48,373 nt of DNA from an uncultured Mycoplasmatota bacterium (GCA_948432605.1 CAOJCV010000001.1:1-48373); one strand, 5' to 3'; shown: positions 3,185 through 40,894, numbered from the stretch's first letter. Numbers and translations are program-made. Notes: generated from the sequence alone by a model not told the origin.

Positions 3185-3377
3185 AAAAAATCCTCCTTAT
3201 TCATTCTATGATATTTATGGAAATTTTAAAATAGTTTTATTCTAAAAAGAATGTAAAAAAAAGAAAAATTTTGAAAGATATTTTTTTCTTTTCATAATAC
3301 CCCTCCCTTTTAGAACATACAATCATAATCTAGGGATTAGTTTTTTTTTAAACTTAAAATAAAATATAGGTGGTGTT

Positions 3378-3851: not shown

Positions 3852-3861
3852 TATTTAATTG

Positions 3862-3889
3862 AAAAAAATCACAGCAAAGTGATTTTTTT
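3862..3889. terminator. Bidirectional rho-independent terminator between convergent genes
   Basis: Stem AAATCAC / GTGATTT (3866-3872 / 3879-3885), flanked by an A-run and a T-run. Confidence 0.7.
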
Positions 3890-5336: not shown

Positions 5337-5527
5337 TATATATCCTCCTTCACTAAGATTATAGCATAAAATATGAAAATGTTAATAAATTTAATATGAA
5401 AAATTGGTGAAAATGACTATAATTATTTCAATATCTATTGCATAATTAATTTTATTTCTTTTTCGATTTAGAAATGTAGATTTTTTTCATAATCTATGTT
5501 AAAGTAAACAGCCAAGGAGGATTTTAT

Positions 5528-6271
5528 ATGTTAAATTTATATGATGAAATTTTGATTGAAGAGGTAAACAAAGTTTCACAAGAAAAAAAGGACTTTACTT
5601 TTTTGGGTCTTTATCTTGCTAATGAGAAAAATGTTAGTGCTTTAAAAATTTTAAACTGGCTTACTGTTGCTATACAACAGAATTGGATTGCTAAGGAAAT
5701 TGATTTTAATAAAAAAAATACGGTTGTAATCAGAGATTTAGGTTCTACATATACTTTTCAAGAAAACATTCCTAGTAAATTAATTGAAAATCCAATGTAT
5801 GTTGCTAAGGAAGTTTTAGATTATATTTCTAAAACTAATAAAGTTGACTTTAATTTTAGACCTTATAAAAATTATTCTTTAAAAGAAATGCTTGCTAAAG
5901 TATTAGTTGATTTTCAAAACCCTGAATCTTCTTTTTATCAATGCGATCGCGTTGCTGAAAAAACATTAGAAATTATTTTCTATTTTTCTCAACATACCAC
6001 AATGAATATTAATAGTACTATGCAACATTTTCTTCTCACTGCAATGAAACAAGATATTCCTTTATTTTTAAAACAACTTATTGTTGATATTTTATCTAAA
6101 AGTAGTAAACCTCATAAAAAATATGCTACTCTTGTTGAAGAGAATTTAGAAGCTAAGAAAAATCTTTTGCTATTAGAACAACAACATCGTTTTATTAATG
6201 AAGTAGATTATCGATACTTTATGAATAATTTGTGTCCTAAATTAAAAAGACATGAGATTAAATTAAAATAA
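5528..6271 (+). CDS. Hypothetical protein
   Basis: 247-aa ORF with AAGGAGGA RBS. No motif recognised. Confidence 0.5.
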   Translation: MLNLYDEILIEEVNKVSQEKKDFTFLGLYLANEKNVSALKILNWLTVAIQQNWIAKEIDFNKKNTVVIRDLGSTYTFQENIPSKLIENPMYVAKEVLDYISKTNKVDFNFRPYKNYSLKEMLAKVLVDFQNPESSFYQCDRVAEKTLEIIFYFSQHTTMNINSTMQHFLLTAMKQDIPLFLKQLIVDILSKSSKPHKKYATLVEENLEAKKNLLLLEQQHRFINEVDYRYFMNNLCPKLKRHEIKLK

Positions 6272-6301
6272 CTTAGATTTTTTCTAAGTTTTTTAATTTT
6301 A

Positions 6302-6577
6302 CTAATGAGTTACTTTCTTATAATTTTTTATTCTTCCACTTACTTTTTCACATGGTTCCAGTAATTTTGCAGGAGCTATTTCAAGTGCAGTAGCGATTTC
6401 TATTAAAGTATAAACAGTTATTCCCATATGAGCATTCTCTAATAAACTCACATAATTCACAGTTTTATTAATCTTTTCTGCAAATTCTTCTTGTGTATAT
6501 CCTTTTTGTAAACGATATTTTTTCACATTGTTTCCTAAATTAATAAAATGTTTATTGTACTCCATATATTCACCCAA
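6302..6577 (-). CDS. XRE-family HTH transcriptional regulator
   Basis: HTH_3 pattern (LQKGYTQEEFAEKINKTVNYVSLLENA). The real start is probably the ATG at 6565. Confidence 0.7.
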   Translation of the reverse strand: MGEYMEYNKHFINLGNNVKKYRLQKGYTQEEFAEKINKTVNYVSLLENAHMGITVYTLIEIATALEIAPAKLLEPCEKVSGRIKNYKKVTH

Positions 6578-6712
6578 GTTAATTGTACCTAAGATGTTCT
6601 ATGTTTAACATTGAGTATGAATCAAAGTTATTGCTTACAAAGATTTTATTTTTTATTTTTAAATTAATAACATTGTACCACATTTATTACTATGTGTAAA
6701 TGTTTTGAGTTA

Positions 6713-6740
6713 TAAAAAAAAAGGAATTTTTTTTCCTTTT
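6713..6740 (-). terminator. Rho-independent terminator after asnB
   Basis: Minus strand AAGGAA-loop-TTCCTT followed by T8. Confidence 0.65.
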
Positions 6741-8578
6741 TATCTTTTTATAAAATATTCTTCGTACCATATTAAAAAGCAATATATATTATAAATTTTT
6801 CGACCATTATTTACTTTATTTTGATAATGATCTTCAAGTAATTTTAGAATATATTTTTGATCGAAAAATTTTATAACATAATCTTTTTCAAACATTGTTT
6901 TTACTTTCTTATAATATTTTTCTTCGCGTATCCATTTTGAAAATGGTACTGGAAAACCACATTTTCTTCTTTTGGCCCATTCATTTGGTATTTTGTCTTT
7001 TGATATATCGCGAAATAAATATTTTGTTTCTTTATTTTTTAATAAATATTTGTTTGGTAATGTCTTAGCAAAGTTAAAAACATCAATATCCATTAAAGGT
7101 GTTCTCAGTTCAATTGAGTGAGCCATACTCATTTTGTCAGCTTTTAGTAATATGTCTTGTGGTAACCAAAAATGAAAATCAATAAATTTTTTCTTGGTTA
7201 CTTCATCTGCTTTTTTTATTTTAGAATATACAGGTTCTAATACGTCTGATATTTTTTCATTATTTTTTAAATCTTTTGCTAATATTTTATTTGCATCCTC
7301 TGGTTCCATAAACGTTCCATGTCCAATATAACGTTCGTTAAATGGAAGGCCATATAAAATTAAAGTATTTCGTCCTGGAAAGTGTGGTAAATGCTTACAA
7401 ATATTACGTATAAATTTTCTAAAAAATAGTGGAATTTTTAAGTAAATTTTAAGTAGGGTTGGATCATTATATTCATTATATCCTGAAAACATTTCATCGC
7501 TGCCTTCTCCTGATAAACAAACCTTTACTTCTTTTCTTGTTAGTTCACTTAAAAAATATAAAGGAACAGTAGAAAGATTTGCATGAGGTTCATCTGTATG
7601 CCATTCGACTTTTGGCAAGGCATCGAAGAAATCATCTGGGCTTATTTTTTTACGATAATTTTTTATTTCTAATAAATTCGATAAATCTTTTGCTAAATCT
7701 GTTTCATCAAACCCTTCGTAAGAAAAACCAACAGAAAATGTTTTATCTGGTTTTGCAACACTTACAACATATGAAGAATCCACTCCTCCAGATAAGTAGG
7801 CTCCTACTTCCACTTCACTAGTAGTTTGATGATAATAGATTGAATCTTCTAAGATGCTTTTTAATTCATTTTTCATTTCTTCATAAGTTTTTTTTGTATC
7901 TTCCTGATAATTTAATTCAAAATAGGGTTTTATTTCTAATTCATTATTTTTATAATGAAAGTAATGTCCAGGTTTTAGTTTAAATACATTTTTAAAAAAT
8001 GTTTCTTCTTTTACAGAATATTGAAATATTAAATACATTTTTAAGGCATCTGTATTGATTTCTTTTTTAAAATTTGGGTGTACTAACATTGATTTAATTT
8101 CAGAGGCAAACATAAATTCTGAATCATTAAAGTAATAATATAACGGCTTCATTCCAAAATGATCTCTAGCACCTACTAATTCTTTTGTTTTTTTGTCATA
8201 TATGACAAATGCAAACATTCCTCTAAGACGAGGAAATAAGTCATCTTTCCATGCTTCATATCCATGTAATATTACTTCAGTATCTGTTTTTGTTCGGAAT
8301 TCATGACCTAACTTTATTAGTTCTTCTTTTAATGATTCATAATTGTATATTTCACCATTAAAAATAATTACTTTATCATTATCTTCATTCATTATCGGTT
8401 GGCATCCATTTGAAACATCAATTATTGAAAGTCTTCGATGACCTAATGCAACAACATTATCACAATAATAACCTTCTCCATCTGGTCCACGATGAATGAT
8501 TTCTTTTGCCATGTCTTTTACTATTTTTTCTTTTTCTTTGGCTTTTATTTTATCAACAAATCCTACTATTCCACACAT
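6740..8578 (-). CDS. asnB: Asparagine synthase (glutamine-hydrolysing)
   Basis: N-terminal MCGI nucleophile, RGPDG, and the SGGVDSS PP-loop motif. 612 aa. Lies 12 nt downstream of lysS, so probably co-transcribed. Confidence 0.9.
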   Translation of the reverse strand: MCGIVGFVDKIKAKEKEKIVKDMAKEIIHRGPDGEGYYCDNVVALGHRRLSIIDVSNGCQPIMNEDNDKVIIFNGEIYNYESLKEELIKLGHEFRTKTDTEVILHGYEAWKDDLFPRLRGMFAFVIYDKKTKELVGARDHFGMKPLYYYFNDSEFMFASEIKSMLVHPNFKKEINTDALKMYLIFQYSVKEETFFKNVFKLKPGHYFHYKNNELEIKPYFELNYQEDTKKTYEEMKNELKSILEDSIYYHQTTSEVEVGAYLSGGVDSSYVVSVAKPDKTFSVGFSYEGFDETDLAKDLSNLLEIKNYRKKISPDDFFDALPKVEWHTDEPHANLSTVPLYFLSELTRKEVKVCLSGEGSDEMFSGYNEYNDPTLLKIYLKIPLFFRKFIRNICKHLPHFPGRNTLILYGLPFNERYIGHGTFMEPEDANKILAKDLKNNEKISDVLEPVYSKIKKADEVTKKKFIDFHFWLPQDILLKADKMSMAHSIELRTPLMDIDVFNFAKTLPNKYLLKNKETKYLFRDISKDKIPNEWAKRRKCGFPVPFSKWIREEKYYKKVKTMFEKDYVIKFFDQKYILKLLEDHYQNKVNNGRKIYNIYCFLIWYEEYFIKR

Positions 8579-8590
8579 AGTTTTTCCTTT

Positions 8591-10051
8591 CTAATCTTTT
8601 GGTCTCATTAATGGAAATAATATTACATCTTTTATATTTTCTGAAGATGTTAATAACTGTACTATTCTATCAATTCCCATTCCCCATCCACTGATAGGTG
8701 GCATTCCATATTCCATTGCAGAAATATAATCATAATCCATTGGCATAGCTTCGTCATCACCTTGAGCTTTTAATTTTGCTTGTTCATTAAGACGTTTTTC
8801 TTGTTCAATTGGATCTACTAATTCTGAATATGCATTTATTATTTCGGCTCCGTTAATAACTAATTGGAAGCGATCTGTAATATTTTTATTTTCGTCATTT
8901 GCACGCGCTAAAGGTGATAAGCTAATTGGATGTTCTACTAAAAATACTGGTTCTACTAAATGTGGTCTTGCTACTTTTTTATATAGCTGATCTACTAAAT
9001 TTCCATATCCTAAATCTTCTAGTGGTGTTTCTGAATCTATTTCTATATTAAATTTTCTAATTTCTTTTAATAATAGTTCTTTTGTGTTTGCTATATTTAT
9101 ATCAATGGCAGCATATTTTAATATTAAATCACGGAAACTTACACTACCCCATTCTCCACTTAAATCGACACATTTATCTCCAATTTGGATTTGTAGAGTT
9201 CCAAATAATTTTTGAATAATTGTTTGTAGCATTTTTTGGAGTAAAACCATATTATCTTTATAATTTAAGTATGCTCCATATCCTTCAATCATTGTAAAAT
9301 CTTGTAGGTGAGTTGCATCCAACCCTTCATTACGGAAACATCTCGCAATTTCAAATACTTTTGTAAATCCTCCAACTATAGCTCGTTTTAAATAAGTTTC
9401 TGGGGCAATTCTTAAATATAAATCAATATCTAGCGCATTATGATGGGTAATAAATGGTTTTGCCGTAGCTCCACTTGCTTTATTATTTAAAATAGGTGTT
9501 TCTATTTCAATATAACCTATCTCATTTAAGTATTCCCTAATTTCACGAATAAATGCACTTCGAAATAAAAATTTCTTTTTTTCTTCTTCATTCATTATTA
9601 AGTCAACATATCTTTCACGATATATTAATTCTTGATCTTCTAATCCATGAAATTTCTCTGGAAGTGGTTTTAAAGCTTTTCCTAGAAATGTTATGCTATT
9701 TGCACGTATTGTTTTTTCTCCTGTATGTGTTGTAAACATTTCTCCTTCTATTCCGATAAAATCACCTAAGTCATAGTTTGTTTTAAATTCGCTGTAAGAT
9801 TCTTCTCCAATCATATCCATTTTTACAGATATTTGAATTCTTCCTCCAATATCCCCAATCGTGAGAAAACTCATTTTTCCCATTTTACGCATCAATACGA
9901 TACGACCAGCAACTCTGATTTCTGTTGTTCCATCAGGAAGATTTATTGCATCTTTTATTTCTGTATTTGTTTCAAATCTTTCTGGATAAGGATTTTTTAT
10001 ATTTTGTAATTTTTCTCTTCTTACTCTTTCTTGTTCTGTAAATTCTCTCAT
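8591..10051 (-). CDS. lysS: Lysine--tRNA ligase, class II
   Basis: 486 aa with an OB-fold N-terminus and class II motifs (FRNEG, GMGIDRL-like GMGIDRIV). Confidence 0.93.
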   Translation of the reverse strand: MREFTEQERVRREKLQNIKNPYPERFETNTEIKDAINLPDGTTEIRVAGRIVLMRKMGKMSFLTIGDIGGRIQISVKMDMIGEESYSEFKTNYDLGDFIGIEGEMFTTHTGEKTIRANSITFLGKALKPLPEKFHGLEDQELIYRERYVDLIMNEEEKKKFLFRSAFIREIREYLNEIGYIEIETPILNNKASGATAKPFITHHNALDIDLYLRIAPETYLKRAIVGGFTKVFEIARCFRNEGLDATHLQDFTMIEGYGAYLNYKDNMVLLQKMLQTIIQKLFGTLQIQIGDKCVDLSGEWGSVSFRDLILKYAAIDINIANTKELLLKEIRKFNIEIDSETPLEDLGYGNLVDQLYKKVARPHLVEPVFLVEHPISLSPLARANDENKNITDRFQLVINGAEIINAYSELVDPIEQEKRLNEQAKLKAQGDDEAMPMDYDYISAMEYGMPPISGWGMGIDRIVQLLTSSENIKDVILFPLMRPKD

Positions 10052-10290
10052 TTTTTTCTACTCACTTTCTAAAATTAAAAACAGGAATTTCATCCAATTA
10101 AGGACGAACTTTCCTGTTTAGCCCGCGGTACCACCTTACTTCATGTTTCCATGCTCTTTAAAAGTTTTAAGGGACTACTCCCATACACTCCAGTGCTTTT
10201 TTCGATAATTTTTCTTTGATAAGTTTCACCAACCCTTATCTCTCTAAAAAAGTTTAAAATTTCTACTCCACCTTCGCCGTGTTTCTAAAA
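10052..10290 (-). promoter_or_regulatory. T-box leader (tRNA-sensing transcription attenuator) upstream of lysS
   Basis: Minus-strand GGTGGTACCGCG T-box core (10124-10135). AGTA, AGAGAG and GGTGAAA stem I elements. Intrinsic terminator AAACAGGAA...TTCCTGTTTTT (10077-10119) overlaps the antiterminator. GAA-AAA-A at 10197-10203 is a plausible Lys specifier. Confidence 0.8.
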
Positions 10291-10292
10291 TG

Positions 10293-10321
10293 AATATACT
10301 AATTTTTTTTTAAATTGTCAA
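10293..10321 (-). promoter_or_regulatory. Sigma-A type promoter of the lysS T-box leader
   Basis: Minus strand TTGACA (10316-10321), 17-nt spacer, TATATT (10293-10298). Confidence 0.7.
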
Positions 10322-10341
10322 TTCTAATTTTTATTAGTAGT

Positions 10342-13255
<2,914 letters not shown>

Positions 13256-13329
13256 TTCTTTCCCTTTCTATTTGTTATATTCTTTTTTATTTTGTAACTT
13301 AAGTATTAGGTTTATACTTTTTTAAAGCC

Positions 13330-14025
13330 CTATTTTTTTAGTAATTTATATTCTTTTTCCTCTTTTAGACTATTTTCTAATGCACACAGTAACTCTAATA
13401 ATGACAAAGATACAATTTTCTTTTCTTTTAAAACTATTTCATACATTTTGGTCTTTTCTATATAGCTTAGATATAGGGAATTACCTTCTTTTATATTACT
13501 AGCTATACTAGGAAATAATTTTGTAAAATTTTTTAAAAATGCTTCTCTTCCATTCCAAAGATTTGTTGTTTTGTCTAAATAGCATGCTTGTAAATTTTCC
13601 ACTTCTCCGTAGATTTCTAAAACGTCATTGTGGTGTTCTTGTAAATTTTTTTCTAATGTATTAAATTCTTCTTTAGAAAAAGATTCTAAATTAGAAAGTA
13701 ATCTTTCTATAGTATTTTCACCTTTTACTTTTAATAATTTCTTTTGATAAGTTCTAGCTAGTTCATAATAGTATATTTCTCCAAAGAACGTTCCTTCTTT
13801 ATAAGTAAATTTTAATGTATATTTGGATAATATTTTAGATATGGTTGGATAGTTTTCAAAAGTGCGAATTAAAGAATGATGTCCAGTTAAAACGATTTGA
13901 TGATTGTTCTTTGTTAAAGCATTTATATATAATTTGTCGTTCATGTAGTGTAATGCTATTGAACACTCTTCTTTACCCCAATCATATATTAATTTTTCTA
14001 GCAAACATAATCTAAATGATTTCAT
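13330..14025 (-). CDS. Hypothetical protein
   Basis: 231-aa ORF inside the pcrA-ligA gene string. No motif recognised. Confidence 0.45.
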   Translation of the reverse strand: MKSFRLCLLEKLIYDWGKEECSIALHYMNDKLYINALTKNNHQIVLTGHHSLIRTFENYPTISKILSKYTLKFTYKEGTFFGEIYYYELARTYQKKLLKVKGENTIERLLSNLESFSKEEFNTLEKNLQEHHNDVLEIYGEVENLQACYLDKTTNLWNGREAFLKNFTKLFPSIASNIKEGNSLYLSYIEKTKMYEIVLKEKKIVSLSLLELLCALENSLKEEKEYKLLKK

Positions 14026-29694: not shown

Positions 29695-30327
29695 TTAAGC
29701 CTTTTTTATTGGATGACGTATTACAGTTTTTTGTTTATTTATTTTGCATTTTCTTGGATCGCTAAGGTATATCTCATGATGATATCTTGAATCAGTTATA
29801 TCAAGTTCATAATTATTTTCTTTCATGTAGTTATGCATTAATTCTACAGTCTTTGGTTCATCATCATAAGGGCCAATGTGCATGCATTGAACACATTCTC
29901 CTTCATCATACACAAAAAACTCAACTTTTGAAAAATCCATTTTCTTTTTCTTTGTTGCTTCATTAATAGCCCAGTCAAAATCATTTTTCGTCACAAAATC
30001 AGGTAATCTAATCAAAGAAATAAAATGTAAATCTTCTTTTCTATTATAATCCATTCCTTTTGTATTTTCTTGCCACCAGAAACCTTCTAATGGGGGGACT
30101 ATATATTCAAAGTAGCCTTCCATTTTGTATGTACCTTTATAACTCATTTTAATTGTATAAGCTATATTATATAATAAATTTATCGATTTTTTGTATTCTC
30201 CATTTTCTTCATTGGGATTGCCCTTTCCTCTTACTGCAAGATAGTTCATTTTAGGAATCTTTATAATGCTTGGTTTATTTTTAGGAGAATAAAACTCTTT
30301 ATATTCTTTTTTATAATCAAATGCCAT
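29695..30327 (-). CDS. GyrI-like small-molecule-binding domain protein
   Basis: Pattern typical of GyrI-like/SOUL proteins (YLAVRGKGNP ... EGFWW ... HEIYLSDPRK). Start at the ATG at 30327 after GAAAGGA. 11 nt downstream of the DUF2075 gene. Confidence 0.7.
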   Translation of the reverse strand: MAFDYKKEYKEFYSPKNKPSIIKIPKMNYLAVRGKGNPNEENGEYKKSINLLYNIAYTIKMSYKGTYKMEGYFEYIVPPLEGFWWQENTKGMDYNRKEDLHFISLIRLPDFVTKNDFDWAINEATKKKKMDFSKVEFFVYDEGECVQCMHIGPYDDEPKTVELMHNYMKENNYELDITDSRYHHEIYLSDPRKCKINKQKTVIRHPIKKA

Positions 30328-30338
30328 GCTAGTCCTTT

Positions 30339-32108
30339 CTAATTTACACATTTTTTTAATTGTTTTTGAAGTTCATCATCACAGGCATAAATATATAATC
30401 CATTTACGCCTCTAGTAAGCAATACACCTAATTCGTTTCTTAAAAATTCTTCTCCGAAACTCTTTTTTTGACCATCACTCAAAGTTCTTTTCTGAATTGC
30501 TTTTGCATTGTAGCTTTTTTTAGTATCAAATATTATTTTATTGTCTCGAAATTTTACAGATGGTCCTATAATTACTCCTACATAATTTAAATCAAATCCT
30601 TGAATCGTAAAAATTGATCCAATTTCATCTATTGTTTGTGGTTGTTCAGCCCATGATAATCCTTTAATAGCACTTTTATCTTTTGGAGAAGAAAATTTTA
30701 TAATTTCTCTATTCCATGGTTTACTCCAATTCGAAATTGTCACTTCCCAATATTTAGAATCTTCTGGGCTTTTTTTACTATTGTATGGCCAATCATAAGT
30801 TGCTACCATGCGTGATAGAGTGGTTTCTTTTTTGCTTGCTTTTTGTTTAATCGCATTTTCTAATTCTTCAGGACTATCAAATATTTTTATTTCGTAATTA
30901 TTTCTTTGCTTTGTTAAGGGTTCAATTTTTTGAAAATCGATTATGGTATCTAACCACGCTATTATTTTTTTATTTGCCATCATTCTCATTTGTTCATTTA
31001 ATTCTATGAAACTATGATTTCTTTTTGCTATATTTATAATGCTTTTCAATTCTTTTTTTTCTAAATATTGTTGGGCATTCATTATTTGTCTATTGTCAAA
31101 CATTGCCACGACTACTTTTGAATATTTTAAAATTTCTTGTAATTGTTTATTTCCGTTAAAAGATTGATTATTTTGTGTTAATAACAAATGTGCTTCATCC
31201 ACAAATACTACATCAAATAATTTTTCTCTTTTTTTCTTTTTAAATAAATTTATAAATTCTGTTGGATTAAATACAATATTTTTATTTCTTTTTTCTAAGT
31301 CAAGTTTTTTTACAATATCTTTATAAACTGTTAATTGTTCTTGATGATTTACCAAAATTGCACATTCAATTTCTTTTATATTTATATCGCTTTCGCTCAC
31401 TGTAAATTCTTGCTGATTTACTAGTTGATAAAAAATACTGCTCATTAAAACACTTTTACCAGTTCCAGATCGTCCTTTAACAAATATAAGTTGATTTGAG
31501 TCTCCCTTTAAAAGACATTCAACAATTTTATCTAATATTACTTCTTGAGCTTTTAGTTGCTCATTATTTAATTTGTGCAAAGGAGAGGCTTTATATATGA
31601 CAGATTCTTTTATTTCATGCGTATCTAAAAATAAGTCTTTATTACAATTTTTTAATTGTTTCCAAGTTTTACTAAATATTTCTTCAAATTCTTCAACAGG
31701 AAAATATTTATTTTGAGGATTACCTTTTGCATTATGAATCTTTTCAACACTTTTTACGCCACTTAAATAGTGGATTAATTTATTTTCGATATCTAAAGTT
31801 AATGATTTATTAAAATCTGGATGCGCTATTATATATAAATCTCCTTTGGTATTTTTCAAAGCATTTTGCCAAGTTCCACTTTTTTTGCTTAAACTAAAAT
31901 GCTGCTCTGTTCTTTTAAAAAAATTTTTTGATTCTCCTACGTAAAGATGGTATTTATTATTTTTCTTCCATGTATACAAATAAACAGTCGGATAATTTCT
32001 AATTAAATCACTTTTTTTATTTAGTTGATTTTCTAATGTTTTTTCAAATAGTTCTACACTTTTCTTTGTTGTTTCTATTTTTTCTATTATAGGATTTTCT
32101 ATATTCAT
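30339..32108 (-). CDS. GIY-YIG nuclease domain fused to a DUF2075 / Schlafen-like P-loop ATPase
   Basis: VYLYTW...YHLYVGESKNFFKRTEQH (GIY-YIG), GRSGTGKS (Walker A), VVFVDEAH (Walker B), and C-terminal TIQGFDLNYVGVIIG and LLTRGVNGLYIY. Confidence 0.75.
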   Translation of the reverse strand: MNIENPIIEKIETTKKSVELFEKTLENQLNKKSDLIRNYPTVYLYTWKKNNKYHLYVGESKNFFKRTEQHFSLSKKSGTWQNALKNTKGDLYIIAHPDFNKSLTLDIENKLIHYLSGVKSVEKIHNAKGNPQNKYFPVEEFEEIFSKTWKQLKNCNKDLFLDTHEIKESVIYKASPLHKLNNEQLKAQEVILDKIVECLLKGDSNQLIFVKGRSGTGKSVLMSSIFYQLVNQQEFTVSESDINIKEIECAILVNHQEQLTVYKDIVKKLDLEKRNKNIVFNPTEFINLFKKKKREKLFDVVFVDEAHLLLTQNNQSFNGNKQLQEILKYSKVVVAMFDNRQIMNAQQYLEKKELKSIINIAKRNHSFIELNEQMRMMANKKIIAWLDTIIDFQKIEPLTKQRNNYEIKIFDSPEELENAIKQKASKKETTLSRMVATYDWPYNSKKSPEDSKYWEVTISNWSKPWNREIIKFSSPKDKSAIKGLSWAEQPQTIDEIGSIFTIQGFDLNYVGVIIGPSVKFRDNKIIFDTKKSYNAKAIQKRTLSDGQKKSFGEEFLRNELGVLLTRGVNGLYIYACDDELQKQLKKCVN

Positions 32109-32121
32109 AATTCAGCCTTCT

Positions 32122-32436
32122 TTATAATTTATTATATTTAGTACATTTTCCTTTTGCTTTTTCTATTGGATATTTTTTTGCTGTTTCTTTCATTTTATTT
32201 AAAACAATTTCTTCAGGATCAACTTCTAATTTTTCTGCAAGCAATAAGGAATAATTGATTACATCAGCTAGCTCTTTTTTTACTTCTTCTATGTCATACT
32301 CGTTATTCCATTGAAAGCATTCCAATAACTCTCCAGCTTCTATACTAATACTTTTAGCTAAGTTTTCGGGTGAATGAAATTTTCCCCAATCTCTCTCTTC
32401 ATTAAATTTTATTATTTCAGTAATTAATTTTTTCAT
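32122..32436 (-). CDS. MazG-like all-alpha nucleoside-triphosphate pyrophosphohydrolase (dCTPase/YpjD type)
   Basis: FNEERDW..FH.P.NLA.SI.IEAGELLE.FQW and ELADV..Y metal-binding motifs. Start at the ATG at 32436 after AGGAAGGAAAAG; the ORF track opens at 32502. Confidence 0.75.
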   Translation of the reverse strand: MKKLITEIIKFNEERDWGKFHSPENLAKSISIEAGELLECFQWNNEYDIEEVKKELADVINYSLLLAEKLEVDPEEIVLNKMKETAKKYPIEKAKGKCTKYNKL

Positions 32437-32573
32437 TTCTTTTCCTTCCTTTAGAGCATAATCAAATGTCTTTTTGATGCCTTTTATTATATTAAAAAAC
32501 ACTACATTTGTAAATTAAATATTTTATTGATTTTATTTAGAATTTATTATAAAATAACAAATCAGACGAAAGG

Positions 32574-33551
32574 GTGATTATTGTGTTTAATCCAAATGTA
32601 AAGAAAGATATTTCAAAATTATGTGAAAAGGCTAATACTAATTATCTATTTGAAGATTTATATCAAGAATACTCTAAAGTATTTCTTTATACTAACGAGA
32701 GCATATGTAAAATGCTAGAATTGGTTCCTCAAAATTTGCATAATTTAAATGTTTTAGGTATTTTAAGTGGAGGTACTTTTCCACTCGAATGTATTTTAAA
32801 AGGTTTTAGAGAAATAGATTGTATTGATTTAAATCGCTTTTCTTTTTACTTTTTTGAATTGTTACTAGCTTCTTTTAGAGGCCTTGACTATGAGGAATTT
32901 TTAAAATTTTGGGGTCTTACTGATCCTTATGAGAAACAGAACTTTTTAAATGAAAATATATATCAAAAATTTGAATCTTTTTTAAAAAAAGAATTTCAAA
33001 CAGTTTGGAATTCTTTCTATGATTTTTGTGGAGGATTGAGTCAAAATCAAAGTCTTATTATTTTTAAAACCGCCAATTATAAAAAGCCTTCCTATTTAAG
33101 TAAAGATGTATTTTTGAAATTAAAAAATACTTTATTATATGAAGAATTAAAATTAAGATATTTTTCTATGGATTTGGGGAATTTGTTTAATGAAAAAGAA
33201 ATAGGTACTTATGGATTAATTTATTTTTCCAATGTTTTACAATTTTACCATCATAATCAATTAGCTAGTATTGATTTCAAGATAGATCTGGCACATAAAA
33301 CTTTTCAAGAAAAACTTATGCAAGATGGTATATTTTTTGTGAATTATCTTTTTCAAAATAGTCTACTTAATGCTAAAATGGAAGCTATCTTCAAAACAAA
33401 TATGGAAAGTTTTTTTCAAAATTTCGGATATAATGTACAAATTGATCCAAATCATTATTGGGATATTCTTGTTAAAAAGTATAGCGATATTTTTCAAATT
33501 GAATCTATTCCAAACAGTGAAGACTTTGTAGTTATGGCTAGAAAAAAATAA
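32574..33551 (+). CDS. DUF3419 (BtaA-like, SAM-dependent transferase fold)-like protein
   Basis: VLGILSGG...IDCIDLN resembles the SAM-binding motif I/II arrangement of DUF3419. The start may be the GTG at 32583. Confidence 0.45.
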   Translation: MIIVFNPNVKKDISKLCEKANTNYLFEDLYQEYSKVFLYTNESICKMLELVPQNLHNLNVLGILSGGTFPLECILKGFREIDCIDLNRFSFYFFELLLASFRGLDYEEFLKFWGLTDPYEKQNFLNENIYQKFESFLKKEFQTVWNSFYDFCGGLSQNQSLIIFKTANYKKPSYLSKDVFLKLKNTLLYEELKLRYFSMDLGNLFNEKEIGTYGLIYFSNVLQFYHHNQLASIDFKIDLAHKTFQEKLMQDGIFFVNYLFQNSLLNAKMEAIFKTNMESFFQNFGYNVQIDPNHYWDILVKKYSDIFQIESIPNSEDFVVMARKK

Positions 33552-33672: not shown

Positions 33673-34599
33673 TTATAATAATTCTAAATATTTCTTTAAC
33701 ATCTCTATTTCTAGCCTTGTTATTAATTTAACAAAATCATTATAATTGCCAGTTGTATGAGCTTTATCTAATGTTTCATAATATTCTAATCTATCCTCTT
33801 TTTTAATTATTACTGGATTAAACCCATGATTCATTAAATCTAAATTCATAAGTAATCTTGATGTCCTACCGTTGCCATCTACAAATGGGTGAATTTTAAG
33901 TAATTCACCATGTAGCAAAGCTGCTTGAATAATAGGATGAAACCCATTCCAATTTTCGTAATTTAAAATCAATTTTTCCATTAATTCTGGAACTTTTAAA
34001 TAATCAGGAGGAGTATGAGCAGCCCCTTTTATAGTAACATTTTCTCTTCTGTATCTTCCTGCATTCTCATCATCAATCTCTTTTAAAACTAATTGATGAA
34101 TATTTTTAATGTTCCATTCAGTAATTGGATTATTTTCTTTTACCAGTTCATTTAAATATATAATAGCTTTTTCATGATTAATTGCCTCTAAATGTTCTTT
34201 TATTGATTTTCCACCAACTGTAATTCCCTCTAATACTATTTGTGTTTCTCTAAGCGTTAAAGTATTCCCTTCTATACCATTACTGTTAAATGTCCATTCA
34301 AGATTAATAGATTCTTCCAAAGATCTTAAAGTTTCTTTTGGTATCGGTCTTTTACCATCTAATGTTTTTTTTAATTCATCAACCTCATTAAAATAATTTT
34401 CTTCTAAATCAATAATAAATTCTTTAGAATCTGGTTTGATAACTCGTTTATCCACAGGTTTTATTGCATCAACTGGAATATTCCAACTGTTTCCGTTTTT
34501 AACAGCCCCTTCAATTCTACCATCTTGTAATAATTGTCTTATTCTTCTTTCACTAATATTCCACTTTTTTACTGCATCTTTTGTAGTTATGAATTTCAT
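33673..34599 (-). CDS. Fic-family protein (probable AMPylase) with N-terminal HTH and intramolecular inhibitory motif
   Basis: HPFVDGNGRTSRLL Fic motif. SNGIEG matches the (S/T)xxxE(G/N) inhibitory helix N-terminal to the core, as in class II Fic. N-terminal excisionase/MerR-like HTH. Start at the ATG at 34599 after GAGAGGTGA. Confidence 0.85.
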   Translation of the reverse strand: MKFITTKDAVKKWNISERRIRQLLQDGRIEGAVKNGNSWNIPVDAIKPVDKRVIKPDSKEFIIDLEENYFNEVDELKKTLDGKRPIPKETLRSLEESINLEWTFNSNGIEGNTLTLRETQIVLEGITVGGKSIKEHLEAINHEKAIIYLNELVKENNPITEWNIKNIHQLVLKEIDDENAGRYRRENVTIKGAAHTPPDYLKVPELMEKLILNYENWNGFHPIIQAALLHGELLKIHPFVDGNGRTSRLLMNLDLMNHGFNPVIIKKEDRLEYYETLDKAHTTGNYNDFVKLITRLEIEMLKKYLELL

Positions 34600-34722
34600 A
34601 CTTTTCACCTCTCTTATATATTATACCGTTGTAGGTAGTTTTTATCAACTCCAGAATATTAATTTTTAACTTTTTATAATTTCATTTATAGTTTCCGATT
34701 GAGAGTCTCTCAAATCTTTCAC

Positions 34723-35390
34723 TTACTTCTTTAAGTGTTCAGTATAATCCCTCATATTCCTATCTTTTGCAAGTTCTGGATTATTATCTCTCCATTCTTT
34801 ATCTGTCATACCAAATAAGGAAACATTTAAAATATCTGCTTCTTCAGCATATATAAATTTTTTTTGATCTTCAATAAGCGGTGAAACTATATAAGTTTTT
34901 ACTGTATCAGTATGAATTACATAATTTAACTTTGAAAGTATTCTATTAGCTTGCCAATCTACTTTTTCTTGATATGCTTCATTAGTTTTTAATCTCTCAA
35001 ACTCAGTTATTAAATACAATTTAAACTCTGGAGATAACCAACTAACAAATTCAAAGATAATTCTGGATGATCTAATGTTCCAATGCTATACTTTCTGCTC
35101 TTAATACCTATTGCATTAATTCGTTTAATCCATTGAGATGAGGACATTGCAAAAAAATTTCTACCATACTCAGTTTTAATTGGTCGAATTCGACCAAATT
35201 AAAATCAGGATTGTAGATTTCTTCCCATCAACCAATTCTTTACTGTAAAAGATGGATCACTAGAACTTTGATACTTAGCCAAGTCTGTTAATGAAATATA
35301 ATTTACATTTCCTACTCTTAAAATTCCAACTTTATTTTCTTTTACAATTATTTCTGCTGTTACTTCATCTTTTTTCAATAGATATTACCT
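34723..35390 (-). pseudogene. Decayed KilA-N domain gene, paralogue of 37348..38235
   Basis: The minus-strand translation matches the intact copy (LKKDEVTAEIIVKENKVGILRVGNVNYISLTDLA ... EFERLKTNEAYQEK...) but is broken by several frameshifts and stops between 35020 and 35300. It is also C-terminally truncated. Confidence 0.8.
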
Positions 35391-35591
35391 CACTTTCTTG
35401 AATTTTAAAAGGATGTTCACATATTTTTTCTGTTTACATCCTTTATTTTAGGGCATTTAAGCCATATTTTCTAATTATTTGCAAACAAATCTCTATTTGT
35501 TAACATTTTTTAACTTTGTAAAATCCTCGCAAAGCCTTTATTTATCTCACTTTCCACAGCAATTTTTGTACTTTTTGCCCGAACCGCAAGG
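34741..35591. repeat. Direct repeat copy A: secA-tail remnant plus intergenic region plus KilA-N module
   Basis: Aligns by eye with 37555-38446. The last 46 nt (35546-35591) equal the secA 3' end (38401-38446), with only 2 substitutions. Confidence 0.85.
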
Positions 35592-35947
35592 TCTTTGATT
35601 ATTTTATTAGCCCAAGTTCTAAATTTAATTGCCTTTTTGGAATTAACTCTGAATCCAATAGAAATAATCATATCAAGACTATAATATTTTGTATTATAAG
35701 TTTGTTTTCCGTCATTACCCATATGTGCAATTTTTGCACATGTGCTACTTTCATTTAATTCTTCATCTTTATAAATATTATTGATATGCCTAACAATGCC
35801 ACTTCTATCAATATTAAAAAGTGTAGATAAAACTTCAGTATTTAACCAAACATCTTCGTTTTCAAGTAATACTTCTACTTTAGTATTCCCATCTTCATCA
35901 TTATAAAATAAAATATTTTTTTCATTTCCAATTAGTTTATCATTCAT
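35510..35947 (-). pseudogene. RhuM-family gene, N-terminal fragment, truncated at the repeat junction and reading out of frame through the orphan secA tail
   Basis: RhuM-like N-terminus (ILFYNDEDGNTKVEVLLENEDVWLN...IGFRVNSKKAIKFRTWA). Similarity stops at 35591, where the secA-tail repeat begins. AAGGAGG RBS before the ATG at 35947. Confidence 0.6.
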
Positions 35948-36032
35948 TACTAGCACCTCCTTTAACAATTATTCATTAAGTAATCAGCTAATAATATTAT
36001 ACTATTTTTTATCTTGCTTAACAATGTTACTA

Positions 36033-37279
36033 CTAAAATTTATCTCTCAAATTTATATCTATTTCTTTTTCTATTGATTCACAAATTTTAATTAAATCAT
36101 TAGTGGTACTAGTAATATAATAATTTTCTGTTGTTTCAGTTCTACTATGACCTAACAACTTAGAAATGTCTTTTATTTCATTTCCTATTCTTAATGCTTT
36201 TGTAGCAAAACTGCCTCTTAAATCATAAAATCTGCAGTTGATTCCTAATTCGTGATGAATAATTTTAAATGGATATCTTATAATATCTGTTCCAGAATAT
36301 GCGCCATCTTTCCTAGTAAATACCATTTCTACTCTATTGCGTTTAGAATAACTTTCCATAATTTTATATTCCACTAACTTACCAAATTTATTTTTTACTT
36401 CTTCTATAATATATCTTTTATACTTTTTTCCATATTGATTTTTTAAATTATTTTGTATATTTTTATAATCTATTAGTACTGTATATAAACTATCACAAAT
36501 ATAAACCTCCCTTTGACTACCTGGTGTTTTAGTTGTACCTAAGTACCATCTTCCACTTTCTCCTTTATCTTTTGCATACACAGTTTTATTTATGTTAATA
36601 ATTCTATTATCTAAATCTATATCATCCCAAGTTAAAGCAAATACCTCTCCTGTTCGCATCCCTGTATAACAAGCGGTTAGAAAGGCACATGTAAAAGTAT
36701 AGTTATTTTTAAATCTTAATAAAATCATATCTATCTCTTCCTGAGTATAAATATGTTTTATATCGTTTTTTTTACATCAAAAGAATAATATCTTGGTAAT
36801 TGCAAATCTGCTGCTGGATTATTTTCAATAAATCCAAAATAATAAGCTGCATCTCTTAATGAACTTCTAATTACTTTTTGATAATTTCTTAGAGCATCTT
36901 TTGAAGTTACTCTTTGAGCTATTCAAAGAAGTGCTTGATTTAAGATATATGATGTTAAATATGCAAGTTTATATTTACCTATTTCCTTTTTTATAGTTTC
37001 AAATGCTTCAGAATATCGTTTTGATGTTGTGTACTTGTAATTAATTTCAAAATATTCCTTCATCCAATAATCAAGATAATCAGAATACAGCATTTGTGAT
37101 TGTTTAAATGTTACTCCTCCATTAATATATTTTTCATAGGCAAGTTGTTCAGCAGCATAGGCTTCATTTTGAGTTTTAAATCCAGACTTATTAATAAACT
37201 TTCTTTTACCATTAATAGTTCCAATTTCAAATTGATATTGATAAACCTTTCCTCTTTTTCTTACATTTACTCTTCTCAT
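36033..37279 (-). pseudogene. Tyrosine recombinase/phage integrase, disrupted
   Basis: N-terminal Arm/AP2-like domain (KRGKVYQYQFEIG...FKTQNEA). C-terminal catalytic region has TGMRTGE, HELGINCRFYDLRG and LLGHSRTETTENYY. Interrupted by an in-frame TGA (36923-36925) and a frameshift in the A8/T8 run (36766-36773). Confidence 0.85.
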
Positions 37280-38235: not shown

Positions 38236-38446
38236 TATGTCACCTCACTTTTTTTGAATTTTAAAAGGATGTTCACATATTTTTTTGTTTACATCCTTTA
38301 TTTTTAAGGCATTAAGCCATATTTTTTAATTATTTGCAAACAAATCTCTATTTGTTAACATTTTTTATCTTTGCTTGAGTCTAGCAAACCCTTTATTTAT
38401 CTCACTTTCCGCAGCAATTTTTGTACTTTTTGCCCGAACCACAAGG
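37555..38446. repeat. Direct repeat copy B: functional secA tail plus intergenic region plus KilA-N module
   Basis: Partner of 34741-35591. Includes a 9-bp-stem hairpin AAAGGATGT...ACATCCTTT that is present in both copies. Confidence 0.85.
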
Positions 38447-40894
38447 ACACATGTCATTACGTCCTACTTTATCTTTATTAATTACAGTTCTATTAGTTGA
38501 TTCTTCTTTTTCGTTTGTTTTTCCTTTTATAGTTTGTTCTCTTTGTGTATTTTGTTCAATATTTGCTTTTAATAAAAATTGAGCAATTGTATCATCTATT
38601 CTATTTAATGTTTGTTCAAACATTTGATATCCTTCCATTGTATAAGCTTGAAGAGGATTTGTTTGAGCATATTGTCTTAAAAATATACCTTCTTTTAGAC
38701 CTTCCATTGCATTTAAATGTTCTACCCAAATTGAATCAATAATTCTTAATGATATTGCACGTTCAAATTCTTCAAAATTTGGTGCATCTTTGATCTTTAA
38801 CTCATAATCTTCATTAATCATATTTGTTAAATATTCAATCATTTTTCCTTCATCTAAATCTTTAATTTCGTCTATTGTAAGTTGTTGTGTTTTTAAGAAA
38901 TTTGTATTTAAATAATTTACTATTTCTTCTAAATCTTTTTCAGTTAACATTCCTTCTGGAGCAATATGGCCTGTTACTAAGTCTTCCATTGTATTTCTAA
39001 ATGTTTCTTTAATAGAGTTATGAATACTTTCATTATCAATTACATTATTTCTTTGTTCATATATAATTCTTCTTTGTTCATTTACGACATTATCATAATC
39101 AAGTAAGTTTTTACGCATGTCAAAGTTGTTTCCTTCTACTTTCTTTTGTGCTGATTCAATTGATTTTGTAAGTGATTTAGAACGTATTGCTTGATCTCCT
39201 ACTAATCCAAGCGCCATTACCATACTTTTTACTTTATCAGTTCCAAATCTTCTCATTAGGTCATCTTCGAATGAAACAAAAAATTGACTCATTCCAGGAT
39301 CTCCTTGACGACCTGCACGTCCACGCAACTGATTATCTATACGACGAGACTCATGACGTTCTGTTCCTATTACACAAAGCCCTCCTATTGCTCGTACTTC
39401 ATCAGTTAATTTAATATCAGTACCACGTCCTGCCATATTAGTAGCTATTGTAATTGCACCTTTTTCTCCAGCTTGAGCAATAATCTCTGCTTCTCTTGCA
39501 TGGTTTTTCGCATTTAATACTTCATGTTGCAACCCTTCTTTTTTTAGCATTGCAGATAATCGTTCATTATTTTCTACAGAAATAGTTCCTACTAATATCG
39601 GTTGTCCAGTTTCATGAATTGTTTTTATTGTTTTTACTATAGCTTCATATTTCCCTGATTCTGTAGAATAAACCAAATCTGCTAAATCTTCTCTTACTAC
39701 TGGTTTGTTTGTAGGAATTCTTATTACATACATATTGTATATATTTCTAAATTCTTCTTCTTCTGTTTTTGCAGTTCCAGTCATACCAGAAAGTTTACTA
39801 TACATTCTAAATAAATTTTGGAATGTTATTGTTGCCATAGTTTGGGTTTCTTCATTTATTTTAACATTTTCCTTTGCTTCAATTGCTTGGTGAAGTCCTT
39901 CACTAAATTGGCGTCCTTGCATTAATCGACCTGTAAATTGATCTACTATCACAACCGAACCATTATCTACAACATAATCTACGTCTTTTTTGAAACCATA
40001 GTTTGCCTTTAGAGCATTGTTTACATGATGAACTAAAGCTGAATTTCCAAAATCATATAAATTTTCTAATCTAAATATTTTTTCTAAATGCTCTGCACCT
40101 TTTTCTGTAATAGATACATTTTTTGTTTTATTATCTATTAGGTATTCATCTTCTTCTAATGCCTTTACTGCTTTATCTGCATCAATATATAAGTTTTTAG
40201 AATTCTGTTTTCCACCTGAAATAATTAATGGCGTTCTTGCTTCATCAATTAAAATAGAATCCACTTCGTCAACAATACAAAAATTTAATGCTCTTTGTAC
40301 TCTATCTTCTTTTTTTACAACCATGTTATCTCTTAAATAATCAAATCCAATTTCGTTATTTGTAGAATAAAGGATGTCACAATTGTATGCTTCTTGTTTT
40401 TCTTTAGGAGACATTTCTCTCATATTTAGCCCAACAGTTAATCCTAAAAATCTAAAAATATTCCCCATCCATTCTGAGTCACGTTTTGCTAAGAATTCGT
40501 TTACTGTTATAATGTGAACTCCTTTTCCATCTAATGCATTTAAGTAAGCAGGCATTGTTTCTGTTAAAGTCTTTCCTTCTCCTGTTTTCATTTCGGCAAT
40601 ATTTCCATAATGGATTGCTAATCCACCTAATATTTGTACATAATATGGTTTTTCACCTAAAATACGGCTGTCTACTTCTCTAACTGTTGCAAAAGCATCC
40701 ACCACTAAATCATTTAATGTTTCTCCATTTGCAAGTCTTTCTTTAAATTCTTTTGTTTTATTTTTTAGCTCTTCATCAGTTAAAGCAGCCATTACACTTT
40801 CTTTTTCTATAATTTGATCTGCTATTTTTTCAAATTTTTTTAATTCTTTATATTCTGAATCAATTAATTTTCTAAATATTCCCATGTTTTTCAC
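38402..40894 (-). CDS. secA: Preprotein translocase ATPase SecA
   Basis: 830 aa with MKTGEGKT Walker A, DEVDSILIDEARTPLIISG, and the C-terminal zinc motif CPCGSGKKYKNCCGK. Confidence 0.95.
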   Translation of the reverse strand: MKNMGIFRKLIDSEYKELKKFEKIADQIIEKESVMAALTDEELKNKTKEFKERLANGETLNDLVVDAFATVREVDSRILGEKPYYVQILGGLAIHYGNIAEMKTGEGKTLTETMPAYLNALDGKGVHIITVNEFLAKRDSEWMGNIFRFLGLTVGLNMREMSPKEKQEAYNCDILYSTNNEIGFDYLRDNMVVKKEDRVQRALNFCIVDEVDSILIDEARTPLIISGGKQNSKNLYIDADKAVKALEEDEYLIDNKTKNVSITEKGAEHLEKIFRLENLYDFGNSALVHHVNNALKANYGFKKDVDYVVDNGSVVIVDQFTGRLMQGRQFSEGLHQAIEAKENVKINEETQTMATITFQNLFRMYSKLSGMTGTAKTEEEEFRNIYNMYVIRIPTNKPVVREDLADLVYSTESGKYEAIVKTIKTIHETGQPILVGTISVENNERLSAMLKKEGLQHEVLNAKNHAREAEIIAQAGEKGAITIATNMAGRGTDIKLTDEVRAIGGLCVIGTERHESRRIDNQLRGRAGRQGDPGMSQFFVSFEDDLMRRFGTDKVKSMVMALGLVGDQAIRSKSLTKSIESAQKKVEGNNFDMRKNLLDYDNVVNEQRRIIYEQRNNVIDNESIHNSIKETFRNTMEDLVTGHIAPEGMLTEKDLEEIVNYLNTNFLKTQQLTIDEIKDLDEGKMIEYLTNMINEDYELKIKDAPNFEEFERAISLRIIDSIWVEHLNAMEGLKEGIFLRQYAQTNPLQAYTMEGYQMFEQTLNRIDDTIAQFLLKANIEQNTQREQTIKGKTNEKEESTNRTVINKDKVGRNDMCPCGSGKKYKNCCGK

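Follow-up and report, generated by a model that had tools for sequence, protein, structure and literature searches.

A MazG-like pyrophosphatase gene coupled to a GIY-YIG–DUF2075 nuclease-helicase gene: a conserved, mobile pair and candidate defence module

Introduction

What kind of unit do three tightly packed genes form on the minus strand of a 48,373-nt stretch of DNA from an uncultured Mycoplasmatota bacterium (GCA_948432605.1 CAOJCV010000001.1:1-48373, the whole of which we call the window), and what could it do for its carrier? The genes lie within 29695-32502 and encode a MazG-like nucleoside triphosphate (NTP) pyrophosphatase, a fusion of a GIY-YIG-type nuclease head with a DUF2075 helicase, and a GyrI-like protein. 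An earlier sequence-only reading of the window had proposed the three together as an uncharacterised defence or nucleotide-surveillance module with the GyrI-like protein as a possible sensor. In this study, comparison across genomes indicates that the MazG-like and DUF2075 genes constitute a self-contained, horizontally mobile two-gene cassette and not a triad. We think it somewhat probable that this pair is a defence module of the Nhi type, that is, a nuclease-helicase with an obligate deoxynucleoside triphosphate (dNTP) pyrophosphatase partner.

Defence by a single gene is proven for Nhi and its Nhi-like relatives, whose helicase domain also occurs in the human Schlafen antiviral proteins. 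The fusion protein of the window belongs to a large branch of this nuclease and DUF2075 family that occurs mostly in gut Clostridia and Bacilli, and also on plasmids of food Lactobacillus. On this branch a dCTPase-like pyrophosphatase is locked to the nuclease-helicase, and the lock outlasts both the inversion of gene order and the exchange of the nuclease head. To our knowledge, an all-alpha NTP pyrophosphatase has not been described as the obligate partner in any defence system. The signal from comparing genomes is unusually clean.

A self-contained gene pair

An open reading frame (ORF) search of the window returned three intact minus-strand ORFs in the interval, and the 11-13-nt gaps of the earlier description were confirmed from the sequence. 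The stop codon of the MazG-like gene is separated from the DUF2075 ATG at 32108 by 13 nt (AGAAGGCTGAATT), and the DUF2075 stop (30339) from the GyrI-like ATG at 30327 by 11 nt (AAAGGACTAGC).

A scan of one genome per GTDB species gave at least 582 matches to the fusion protein, and the best 80 loci (46-59% identity; Clostridia, Lachnospiraceae and uncultured Bacilli) were analysed. In 74 of these 80 species-level loci the fusion gene had a MazG-like gene as its immediate, co-oriented neighbour; the other six comprise four with no MazG within 6 kb, as judged with a family hidden Markov model, and two cut at contig ends. As the adjacency recurs in 74 of 80 independent loci, the tight packing of both genes is not attributable to chance. 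The DUF2075 gene came first in 55 loci and the MazG gene in 19, with gaps mostly between -4 and +16 nt. Around the pair, 945 flanking genes fell into 653 similarity clusters and no neighbour cluster was present in more than 12 loci. In this sense, the pair behaves as a self-contained mobile module, because it survives the inversion of its order while all its surroundings change. The family itself is large, with 2911 fusion homologues at E<=1e-10 in a 90%-clustered collection, mostly full length at ~590 aa, and clustering at 50% leaves 254 representatives at E<=1e-30. The adjacency also extends to more distant relatives of the DUF2075 protein, as MazG was found next to them on IMG/VR contigs at 41% and 26% identity and on plasmids of Lactiplantibacillus plantarum and Ligilactobacillus salivarius at ~43% identity. 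A homologue on a Bacillus cereus plasmid (31% identity) has no MazG.

We also carried out the reciprocal test, starting from close homologues of MazG (55-75% identity) at 80 metagenome loci. A DUF2075 gene was adjacent in 39 of the 80 and within ~1 kb in about 10 more, with a small gene between; the flanks of 12 were too short to judge, and the rest include a lineage in which an HNH_4-related protein follows MazG. Among the DUF2075 partners in this set, 18 have a GIY-YIG head and 23 a PD-(D/E)XK-like head, with the signature ...R[IV]DF[IL]xSG...V[IV]IELKQW.... At locus L033 (3708-7779) a single MazG gene even lies between two DUF2075 helicases, the upstream one PD-(D/E)XK-type and the downstream one GIY-YIG-type. 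Since the same MazG subfamily pairs with both head types, these sequence comparisons indicate that what stays constant is the combination of MazG and helicase core, the nuclease being an effector that can be exchanged. Locus L060 also has both head types.

Some loci carry additional or alternative genes. In L110, L111, L117 and L120 (~2965-5990) a Y-family polymerase (IMS) and a YolD-like gene come before MazG, and a 220-aa protein related to the HNH_4 neighbours comes after it, with no DUF2075, so that MazG can pair with a different nuclease-type partner. A 138-aa Peptidase_S24 protein (UmuD/LexA-like) is placed between MazG and a PD-(D/E)XK-headed DUF2075 gene in L119 (3653-4078) and L129 (5325-5744). 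A protein of 260-280 aa with no Pfam match (cluster c4), absent from the window, is found in 12 loci, among them L095-L098, L116, L027 and L082-L086; its gene separates MazG from DUF2075 in some and comes directly after the pair in others, and it is a possible accessory component. Additionally, a 58-aa HTH_17 protein abuts or overlaps the DUF2075 start in nine loci with the DUF2075>MazG order (L019, L023, L032, L035, L055, L070, L076, L079 and L029) and is a candidate transcriptional regulator of the module. Fic was considered as a third component and rejected: nine upstream 'Fic' matches are these 58-aa HTH_17 proteins, which match only the N-terminal domain of the window Fic protein, and true Fic genes are occasional neighbours only.

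The GyrI-like third gene

The third gene (29695..30327, minus strand; Pfam PF06445, 2.2e-18) encodes a 210-aa protein and was found in none of the 172 other loci with the pair or its MazG. The conservation check therefore recovers the pair only, and the triad of the sequence-only reading does not stand as a unit. The protein matches Lin2189 of Listeria innocua (PDB 3b49/5x5m) over its full length with E = 2e-60, sharing the HHEIY, EGECVQ, PPLEGFWW and YxxxYTIKMS segments. The window protein retains the E157/E185 acidic pair, the E185/Y187 'HHEIY' site and the residues of the aromatic cage. Lin2189 and YtkR7 hydrolyse the DNA-alkylating cyclopropanoids yatakemycin and CC-1065 and protect cells from them, and ~1700 proteins are similar to these two (PMC5684135). 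We consequently read the GyrI-like product as a probable cyclopropanoid hydrolase of the Lin2189 type. Homology with intact catalytic residues speaks against the small-molecule sensor that had been suggested for it, and the protein is better read as a predicted independent xenobiotic-resistance enzyme outside the conserved module. Its absence from the 172 other loci, together with the close Lin2189 homology, makes it a local passenger; the likeness to Lin2189/YtkR7 hydrolases is confined to this passenger gene, which has no tie to the pair in any other locus.

In the window itself the gene is probably co-transcribed with the pair, given the 11-nt gap, the lack of a promoter-like site just upstream of it in a consensus scan, and a weak hairpin after its stop codon (-7.4 kcal/mol, z = -1.1). 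This hairpin was rejected as a terminator, being no better than those of shuffled sequence. We see it as an unrelated resistance gene that came to share the transcription unit of the pair. In the three-component alternative, small-molecule sensing by the GyrI-like protein would govern MazG and the nuclease-ATPase. Such a system would fit the short gap, the shared strand and the absence, from the junction of the DUF2075 gene with the GyrI-like gene, of any convincing terminator or internal promoter; we consider it extremely improbable in view of the 172 loci without the gene and of a hydrolase subfamily that keeps its catalytic residues and works as a standalone protein.

The MazG-like pyrophosphatase and the fusion protein

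The MazG-like gene (32122..32436, minus strand) encodes a 104-aa all-alpha NTP pyrophosphohydrolase of the DCTPP1/RS21-C6 type (Pfam PF12643, 1.6e-17). The ORF finder placed its start at GTG 32502; a putative sigma-70-like promoter, TTTACA-17-TATAAT, was found in a consensus scan 5' of the gene (32486..32514, minus strand, 11/12 match) and overlaps that GTG, and direct reading of the sequence locates a ribosome-binding site (AAAGGAAGG, 32444..32452, minus strand) 7 nt ahead of ATG 32436. For these two reasons we take ATG 32436 as the start, in agreement with the ~104-aa MazG/dCTPase-type protein previously proposed. PDB sequence matches include the archaeal 4qgp (1.1e-17) and mammalian DCTPP1/RS21-C6 (1.8e-14), and PHROG 3301 matches at 4.5e-12. 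The window protein has both the PF12643 family profile and an ExxE...ExxD metal site; among 75 partner sequences conservation is complete or no lower than 95% for the metal ligands E33, E36, E55 and D58, for W17 and for a C-terminal KYP...KY motif. DCTPP1 prefers dCTP and 5-modified dCTP and keeps both out of DNA (PMC7162842, PMC13291643). The window protein resembles DCTPP1/RS21-C6 and archaeal 4qgp in homology (1e-17 to 1e-14), the ExxE...ExxD site and the C-terminal KY; however, DCTPP1 is a stand-alone housekeeping sanitiser, whereas the window MazG is tied to a nuclease-helicase gene on mobile DNA.

The second gene (30339..32108, minus strand) encodes a 589-aa protein with an N-terminal GIY-YIG-type nuclease head and a C-terminal DUF2075/Schlafen-group-3 helicase of the superfamily 1B (SF1B)-like kind. 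PF09848 (SLFN-g3_helicase/DUF2075) matches residues 206-577 at 3.2e-88. The helicase core (residues 171-589; 30342..31598, minus strand) includes a Q-motif region, Walker A (GRSGTGKS, 31452-31475), Walker B (VVFVDEAH, 31188-31211) and R566 of motif VI. In an alignment of 48 sequences, K218 of Walker A, D304 and E305 of Walker B, Q341, R375 and R566 are invariant, as is the T501..G504 region in the SF1B motif check. An AlphaFold2 model of the fusion protein reached a predicted local distance difference test score (pLDDT) of 86 and a predicted template modelling score of 0.82. Its best PDB neighbours in Foldseek were Dna2, Upf1, RecD2, RecD and Dda, with probability 1.0 to Dna2, Upf1 and RecD2, and the tandem RecA-like fold was present in it. 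The motifs and the model thus agree on a predicted SF1B-like helicase core at the C-terminus. A PDB sequence search with the full-length protein gave no match.

The head (residues 40-130; 31719..31991, minus strand) matches the GIY-YIG family PF01541 at 1.7e-5 over residues 43-112, with 25.4 bits, just over the 22.6 cutoff. Y43, Y56-V57-G58, R66, H70, E108 and N126 are invariant in the same 48 sequences. The order of elements in the model, beta-beta-alpha-(alpha)-beta-alpha, is that of GIY-YIG domains, and the isolated domain has a pLDDT of 88.7. A PDB profile search with the head gave the I-TevI catalytic domain as top match over the motif region, with a weak E = 0.13; the motif alignment, also weak, sets YVGSAKDFEKRWKRHF in I-TevI against YVGESKNFFKRTEQHF in the window protein. 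No PD-(D/E)XK signature was found in the window head. At the level of sequence these observations support a GIY-YIG fold. Pfam matches all the domain calls of the sequence-only reading (MazG-like, GIY-YIG and DUF2075, GyrI-like), and its quoted motifs, EAGELLE, ELADV, GRSGTGKS and VVFVDEAH, were all located. With their catalytic motifs intact, both the MazG-like and the fusion protein look active, as far as can be predicted.

Longer relatives of the fusion protein have an N-terminal extension that corresponds to a second GIY-YIG copy; the possibility that it was a fused MazG was rejected for this reason. One GIY-YIG-DUF2075 relative (P0132) has a C-terminal S24 peptidase domain fused to it.

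Relation to known systems

PADLOC-DB 2.0.0, searched with default settings and with a threshold relaxed to E<=10, gave only weak matches to PDC-S14 (4.8e-5, in the GIY-YIG part), mad8 (1.8e-4) and type IV DinG. The Nhi models of PADLOC did not match the window protein even at E<=10, and searches of the window proteins with NCBIfam and PHROGs returned no specific named system. In the full-text collection searched we found no paper that pairs DUF2075 with MazG, MazG with Nhi, or DUF2075 with a pyrophosphatase term in the main text. The earlier statement that no named system could be recognised holds as regards PADLOC, with its weak matches only; nevertheless, the pairing was already listed as a 'Pyrophosphatase' candidate by Millman et al. 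(2022).

Supplementary Table S2 of that study (bioRxiv 10.1101/2022.05.11.491447) contains this unnamed candidate family with two members, SG192 and SG193, and pyrophosphatase with DUF2075 is among its 45 candidates derived from defence islands (Millman et al., 2022). SG192, from Bacillus firmus LK28, consists of a 98-aa pyrophosphatase followed by a 643-aa DUF2075 protein and is marked 'x'; SG193, from B. thuringiensis Lr3/2, has a 619-aa DUF2075 protein followed by a 108-aa pyrophosphatase and is annotated 'Cloning failed' (Millman et al., 2022). The mark 'v' stands for verified, and the Nhi-like SG141 bears it in Table S2 and is given as 'Verified' in Table S17 (Millman et al., 2022). We take the 'x' on SG192 to mean no protection, because 'v' marks the verified systems. 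Over its full length the window MazG shares 46% identity with the pyrophosphatase of SG193 (E = 9e-32), and the helicase cores of the window protein and the candidate are homologous, with 27% identity over 168 residues (E = 6e-8). Likeness to SG192/193 thus lies in a MazG-like pyrophosphatase of ~100 aa with an adjacent DUF2075 helicase, in both gene orders. The difference is in the heads, which are of PD-(D/E)XK type in SG192 and SG193 (...VDFIV...VIVELKQW) and GIY-YIG in the window, with no similarity in the first ~180 residues. The pairing is, then, one that a defence-island screen flagged, in a supplementary table only, and that stands unvalidated and unnamed, and its GIY-YIG-headed branch is previously undescribed.

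The failed cloning of SG193 brings in a view of the pair as a toxin-antitoxin-like or abortive-infection system. The nuclease-helicase would be a latent toxin that the pyrophosphatase restrains, by binding it or by destroying a nucleotide activator, and the loss or inhibition of the small partner would free it. Toxicity could explain the failure, the strict adjacency in both orders with overlaps or short gaps suggests stoichiometric co-expression, and carriage on plasmids and prophages would suit such a system. However, a single cloning failure has many possible causes, and the pyrophosphatase metal ligands are at least 95% conserved, which points to selection on catalysis and not on mere binding. 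The four loci that keep DUF2075 without MazG within 6 kb, and the B. cereus homologue that likewise has none, also argue against a restraining partner. We regard this explanation as decidedly unlikely.

Among validated systems, the closest analogues are Nhi and the Nhi-like protein. Nhi (SERP2475) of Staphylococcus epidermidis joins a nuclease head to a DUF2075 SF1B-like helicase in ~600 aa and shares the structural neighbours Dda, Upf1 and Dna2 with our fusion model (Bari et al., 2022). Nhi differs in having a PD-(D/E)XK/HsdR-like head and being a single gene without a pyrophosphatase partner, whereas the window has a GIY-YIG head and a two-gene unit. The Nhi-like SG141 of Bacillus cereus FSL H8-0482 also resembles the window protein, with a nuclease head, DUF2075, a defence-island context and its verified status, and differs in the same way, through a PD-(D/E)XK-like head and a single gene. 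Both Nhi and Nhi-like SG141 are thus experimentally validated defences of the nuclease and DUF2075 type (Bari et al., 2022; Millman et al., 2022). A BLASTP comparison of the window protein with the first 399 aa of SG141 gave E = 0.13 in the Walker A region only, which is not significant. The group III Schlafen proteins SLFN5/11/13 have the PF09848 helicase-like domain in common with the window protein; SLFN proteins restrict viruses and respond to replication stress. They have their own N-terminal tRNA/RNA nuclease domain, and the likeness is one of domain only. By its sequence, then, the window system looks like an Nhi-style nuclease and DUF2075 helicase with a different head and a MazG-like partner, and sequence membership in the Nhi or Nhi-like groups fails.

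Genomic neighbourhoods

The neighbours of the pair include many genes of defence or mobile elements, here given as positive examples and raw neighbour counts, uncorrected for background. PLD-ResIII-DUF3427 type IV restriction enzymes (PADLOC mREase_IV, methyl-directed REase, 4.9e-188) lie near the pair in 10 loci, a 390-aa HNH_4 protein in 8, C5 methylases in 6, MutH/Sau3AI-like nucleases in 5 and the YhcG PD-(D/E)XK nuclease in 4. Pfam families were also counted for a sample of 149 genes, taken from 74 loci and lying no more than two positions from the pair; ResIII (6), HNH_4 (5) and PLDc_2 (3) were the most frequent, and Thoeris ThsA/ThsB, NERD and AAA_21 were also present. DUF2075 NTPases have been reported to adjoin DUF3427 modification-dependent enzymes and can be fused to GIY-YIG (Lutz et al., 2019, PMC6765204). 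In a Subdoligranulum-type lineage (L082-L086, 801-7545) a C5 methylase, a hypothetical gene, an SNF2 helicase, NOV_C (Hma-like) and a MutH-type nuclease are upstream of the pair, which thus sits between the Hma-like cluster, the MutH-type nuclease and an AAA_23 ATPase; one identical protein of this lineage was found in 149 collection blocks, the island being common to many gut metagenomes. An integrase and type I restriction-modification genes are directly upstream of the pair on the L. salivarius megaplasmid, and the B. cereus plasmid homologue adjoins Wadjet JetD. Defence neighbourhoods, conservation and mobility thus sustain the proposal of an uncharacterised defence module for the MazG/GIY-YIG-DUF2075 pair, the triad being the part of the proposal that is lost.

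A second NTP pyrophosphatase is frequent in these surroundings. In 17 loci the same strand also encodes a MutT/NudG-type NUDIX protein, which has an unrelated fold; its gene is at times inserted between those of MazG and DUF2075 and at times paired with a helicase-nuclease of its own in these clusters. On the L. plantarum plasmid NZ_CP028230.1 (L091, 3342-8737) a NUDIX gene and a 961-aa DEAD/DEAH helicase gene are directly upstream of the pair and a DUF2357 protein is downstream. Two parallel pairs of NTP pyrophosphatase and helicase are thus seen in L091, where the NUDIX is labelled '(deoxy)nucleoside triphosphate pyrophosphohydrolase'. Another observation is a recurrent long same-strand cluster in L035, L031, L032, L021, L055, L070 and L076 (~5800-13600), with a small helix-turn-helix gene, DUF2075, MazG, a 104-aa protein with no Pfam match, HNH_4, sometimes a PNPOx-like gene, PLD-ResIII-DUF3427 and NUDIX. 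This DUF2075-MazG-HNH_4-DUF3427-NUDIX cluster may be a composite island or a larger system.

MazG-type genes are common auxiliary genes of phages, in which they are thought to reshape the dNTP pool. The pair might therefore serve its carrier phage or plasmid, for example by host DNA degradation and reshaping of the pool, and the PHROG 3301 match and the presence of the pair in a prophage (L087, IMG/VR UViG_2806310834_000001) and on IMG/VR contigs are in line with this. In that prophage the pair (8004-10005) follows the tail, holin and endolysin genes and precedes the integrase-side genes. Such a moron slot after the endolysin is the usual place for lysogen-expressed genes, and the pair is not among the replication genes. 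Moreover, only 4 IMG/VR loci and 4 weak GenBank phage matches stand against the at least 582 species-genome matches, and most loci have no phage genes nearby. An auxiliary role for the mobile element is very improbable on this evidence.

Other neighbours lead towards DNA repair. GIY-YIG is the nuclease fold of the UvrC/Slx1 repair type, and MazG/DCTPP1 enzymes are classic house-cleaning enzymes. The pair could in this sense be a genome-maintenance cassette, in which the pyrophosphatase would rid the pool of damaged or non-canonical dNTPs, while the GIY-YIG helicase would remove the lesions they cause or act on stalled forks. Besides the repair-type fold and the house-cleaning class, this is favoured by the S24 peptidase that lies between MazG and DUF2075 or is fused to the latter, by MazG following the Y-family polymerase and YolD in four loci, by the 17 NUDIX loci, by Ogt-type (6-O-methylguanine DNA methyltransferase) and RNase_T neighbours, and by the window's Lin2189-type hydrolase, whose family acts on DNA alkylators. 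Yet no LexA/Cheo box was found upstream in any of 63 loci, and SOS control of the pair was rejected on that ground. The loci with the polymerase all belong to one lineage, their flanks being identical, and MazG goes there with the HNH-related protein and not with DUF2075, and the GyrI-like gene is never with the pair elsewhere. Furthermore, the flanks are unconserved, the pair is found on plasmids, in the prophage moron slot and in the company of restriction-modification, type IV, Thoeris and Wadjet genes, and exchangeable nuclease heads are typical of conflict systems. We consider genome maintenance unlikely, although it is the foremost alternative to defence; if it were true, the pair would be a new mobile genome-maintenance cassette.

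Proposed function and mechanism

We infer a defence function for the pair, and with it a DNA target, a substrate for the pyrophosphatase and a physical complex of both proteins. As an Nhi-type anti-phage or anti-plasmid module, it would be directed at phage or plasmid DNA. The helicase core would load, driven by ATP, on foreign or aberrantly replicating DNA, and the GIY-YIG head would cut the loaded DNA. The pyrophosphatase would hydrolyse dNTPs, most plausibly non-canonical or 5-modified pyrimidine dNTPs, as suggested by the DCTPP1 homology, the adjacency of type IV enzymes and C5 methylases, and the recurrence of NUDIX. Two options may be considered for such an activity: phages that make modified DNA could be deprived of their precursors, or modified nucleotides could be barred from the host chromosome, which the nuclease would then leave alone. 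The enzyme may also act by depleting dCTP in general.

Several observations weigh against a defence function. SG192, the only relative tested, failed to protect E. coli or B. subtilis from the 26 phages of a panel that may lack the right targets. A Foldseek search of the isolated head against the PDB returned no match at E<=0.001, which leaves the GIY-YIG fold unconfirmed by structure search. Many immediate neighbours in the 149-gene sample are ordinary genes, such as SpoIVA, a tRNA synthetase and nitroreductases. Finally, the S24 peptidase, the Y-family polymerase/YolD, NUDIX, Ogt and the genotoxin hydrolase of the window point to DNA-damage biology.

The second option can be taken further, into a pyrophosphatase that is the self-protection arm of a nuclease-helicase attacking DNA with non-canonical or modified bases. 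In place of marking its own DNA, as restriction-modification does, the host would clear its dNTP pool of the offending nucleotides, and the target would be present in invader DNA alone; the neighbouring NUDIX and helicase-nuclease (DUF3427 type IV) pairs would obey the same logic. We find this quite unlikely in that specific form; if true, sanitation of the nucleotide pool would emerge as a general principle of immunity, one that the biology of human DCTPP1 and Schlafen proteins would echo. In the wider reading as an Nhi-type defence module, the pair would add a new enzymatic activity to the nucleotide-depletion and -editing theme of immunity and would provide a concrete hypothesis on modified-base phages. 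In either case, the comparative data pinpoint which two genes and which residues matter for testing.

Setting of the locus in the window

The G+C content is ~26% across the whole window, and the module is compositionally indistinct. Going upstream from the pair there are a divergent DUF3419-like gene, an HTH_17-Fic gene, broken ORF fragments, a truncated RhuM, a split integrase, KilA-N and then secA (38402-40894). Pfam and PADLOC confirm the island setting that had been described from the sequence (Fic, KilA-N, RhuM and integrase next to secA), with the precision that RhuM is truncated and the integrase split. The HTH_17 and Fic protein is encoded two genes upstream of the pair (33673-34608, minus strand; PADLOC SoFic 2.2e-34, PDC-S04 1.4e-35) and is probably a stand-alone Fic defence gene. 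RhuM (35510-35968) retains 152 aa against a 252-position profile and is accompanied by short broken ORFs (34723-35378). The tyrosine integrase (36033-36728 and 36923-37279, minus strand) is divided into an N-terminal ORF (Arm-binding/SAM-like) and a catalytic ORF. Together, the Fic gene, the broken ORFs, the truncated RhuM, the split integrase and KilA-N near secA look like a decayed integrative element. The gene divergent from the MazG promoter region (32574-33551, plus strand) encodes 325 aa with a partial DUF3419 match (3.6e-10, residues 59-133 only); the DUF3419 protein and a VanY neighbour were found in none of the 172 other loci. At a distance from the module, a T-box leader (RF00230, 101.8 bits) is present at 10097-10286 on the minus strand, upstream of a 486-aa gene at 8591-10051.

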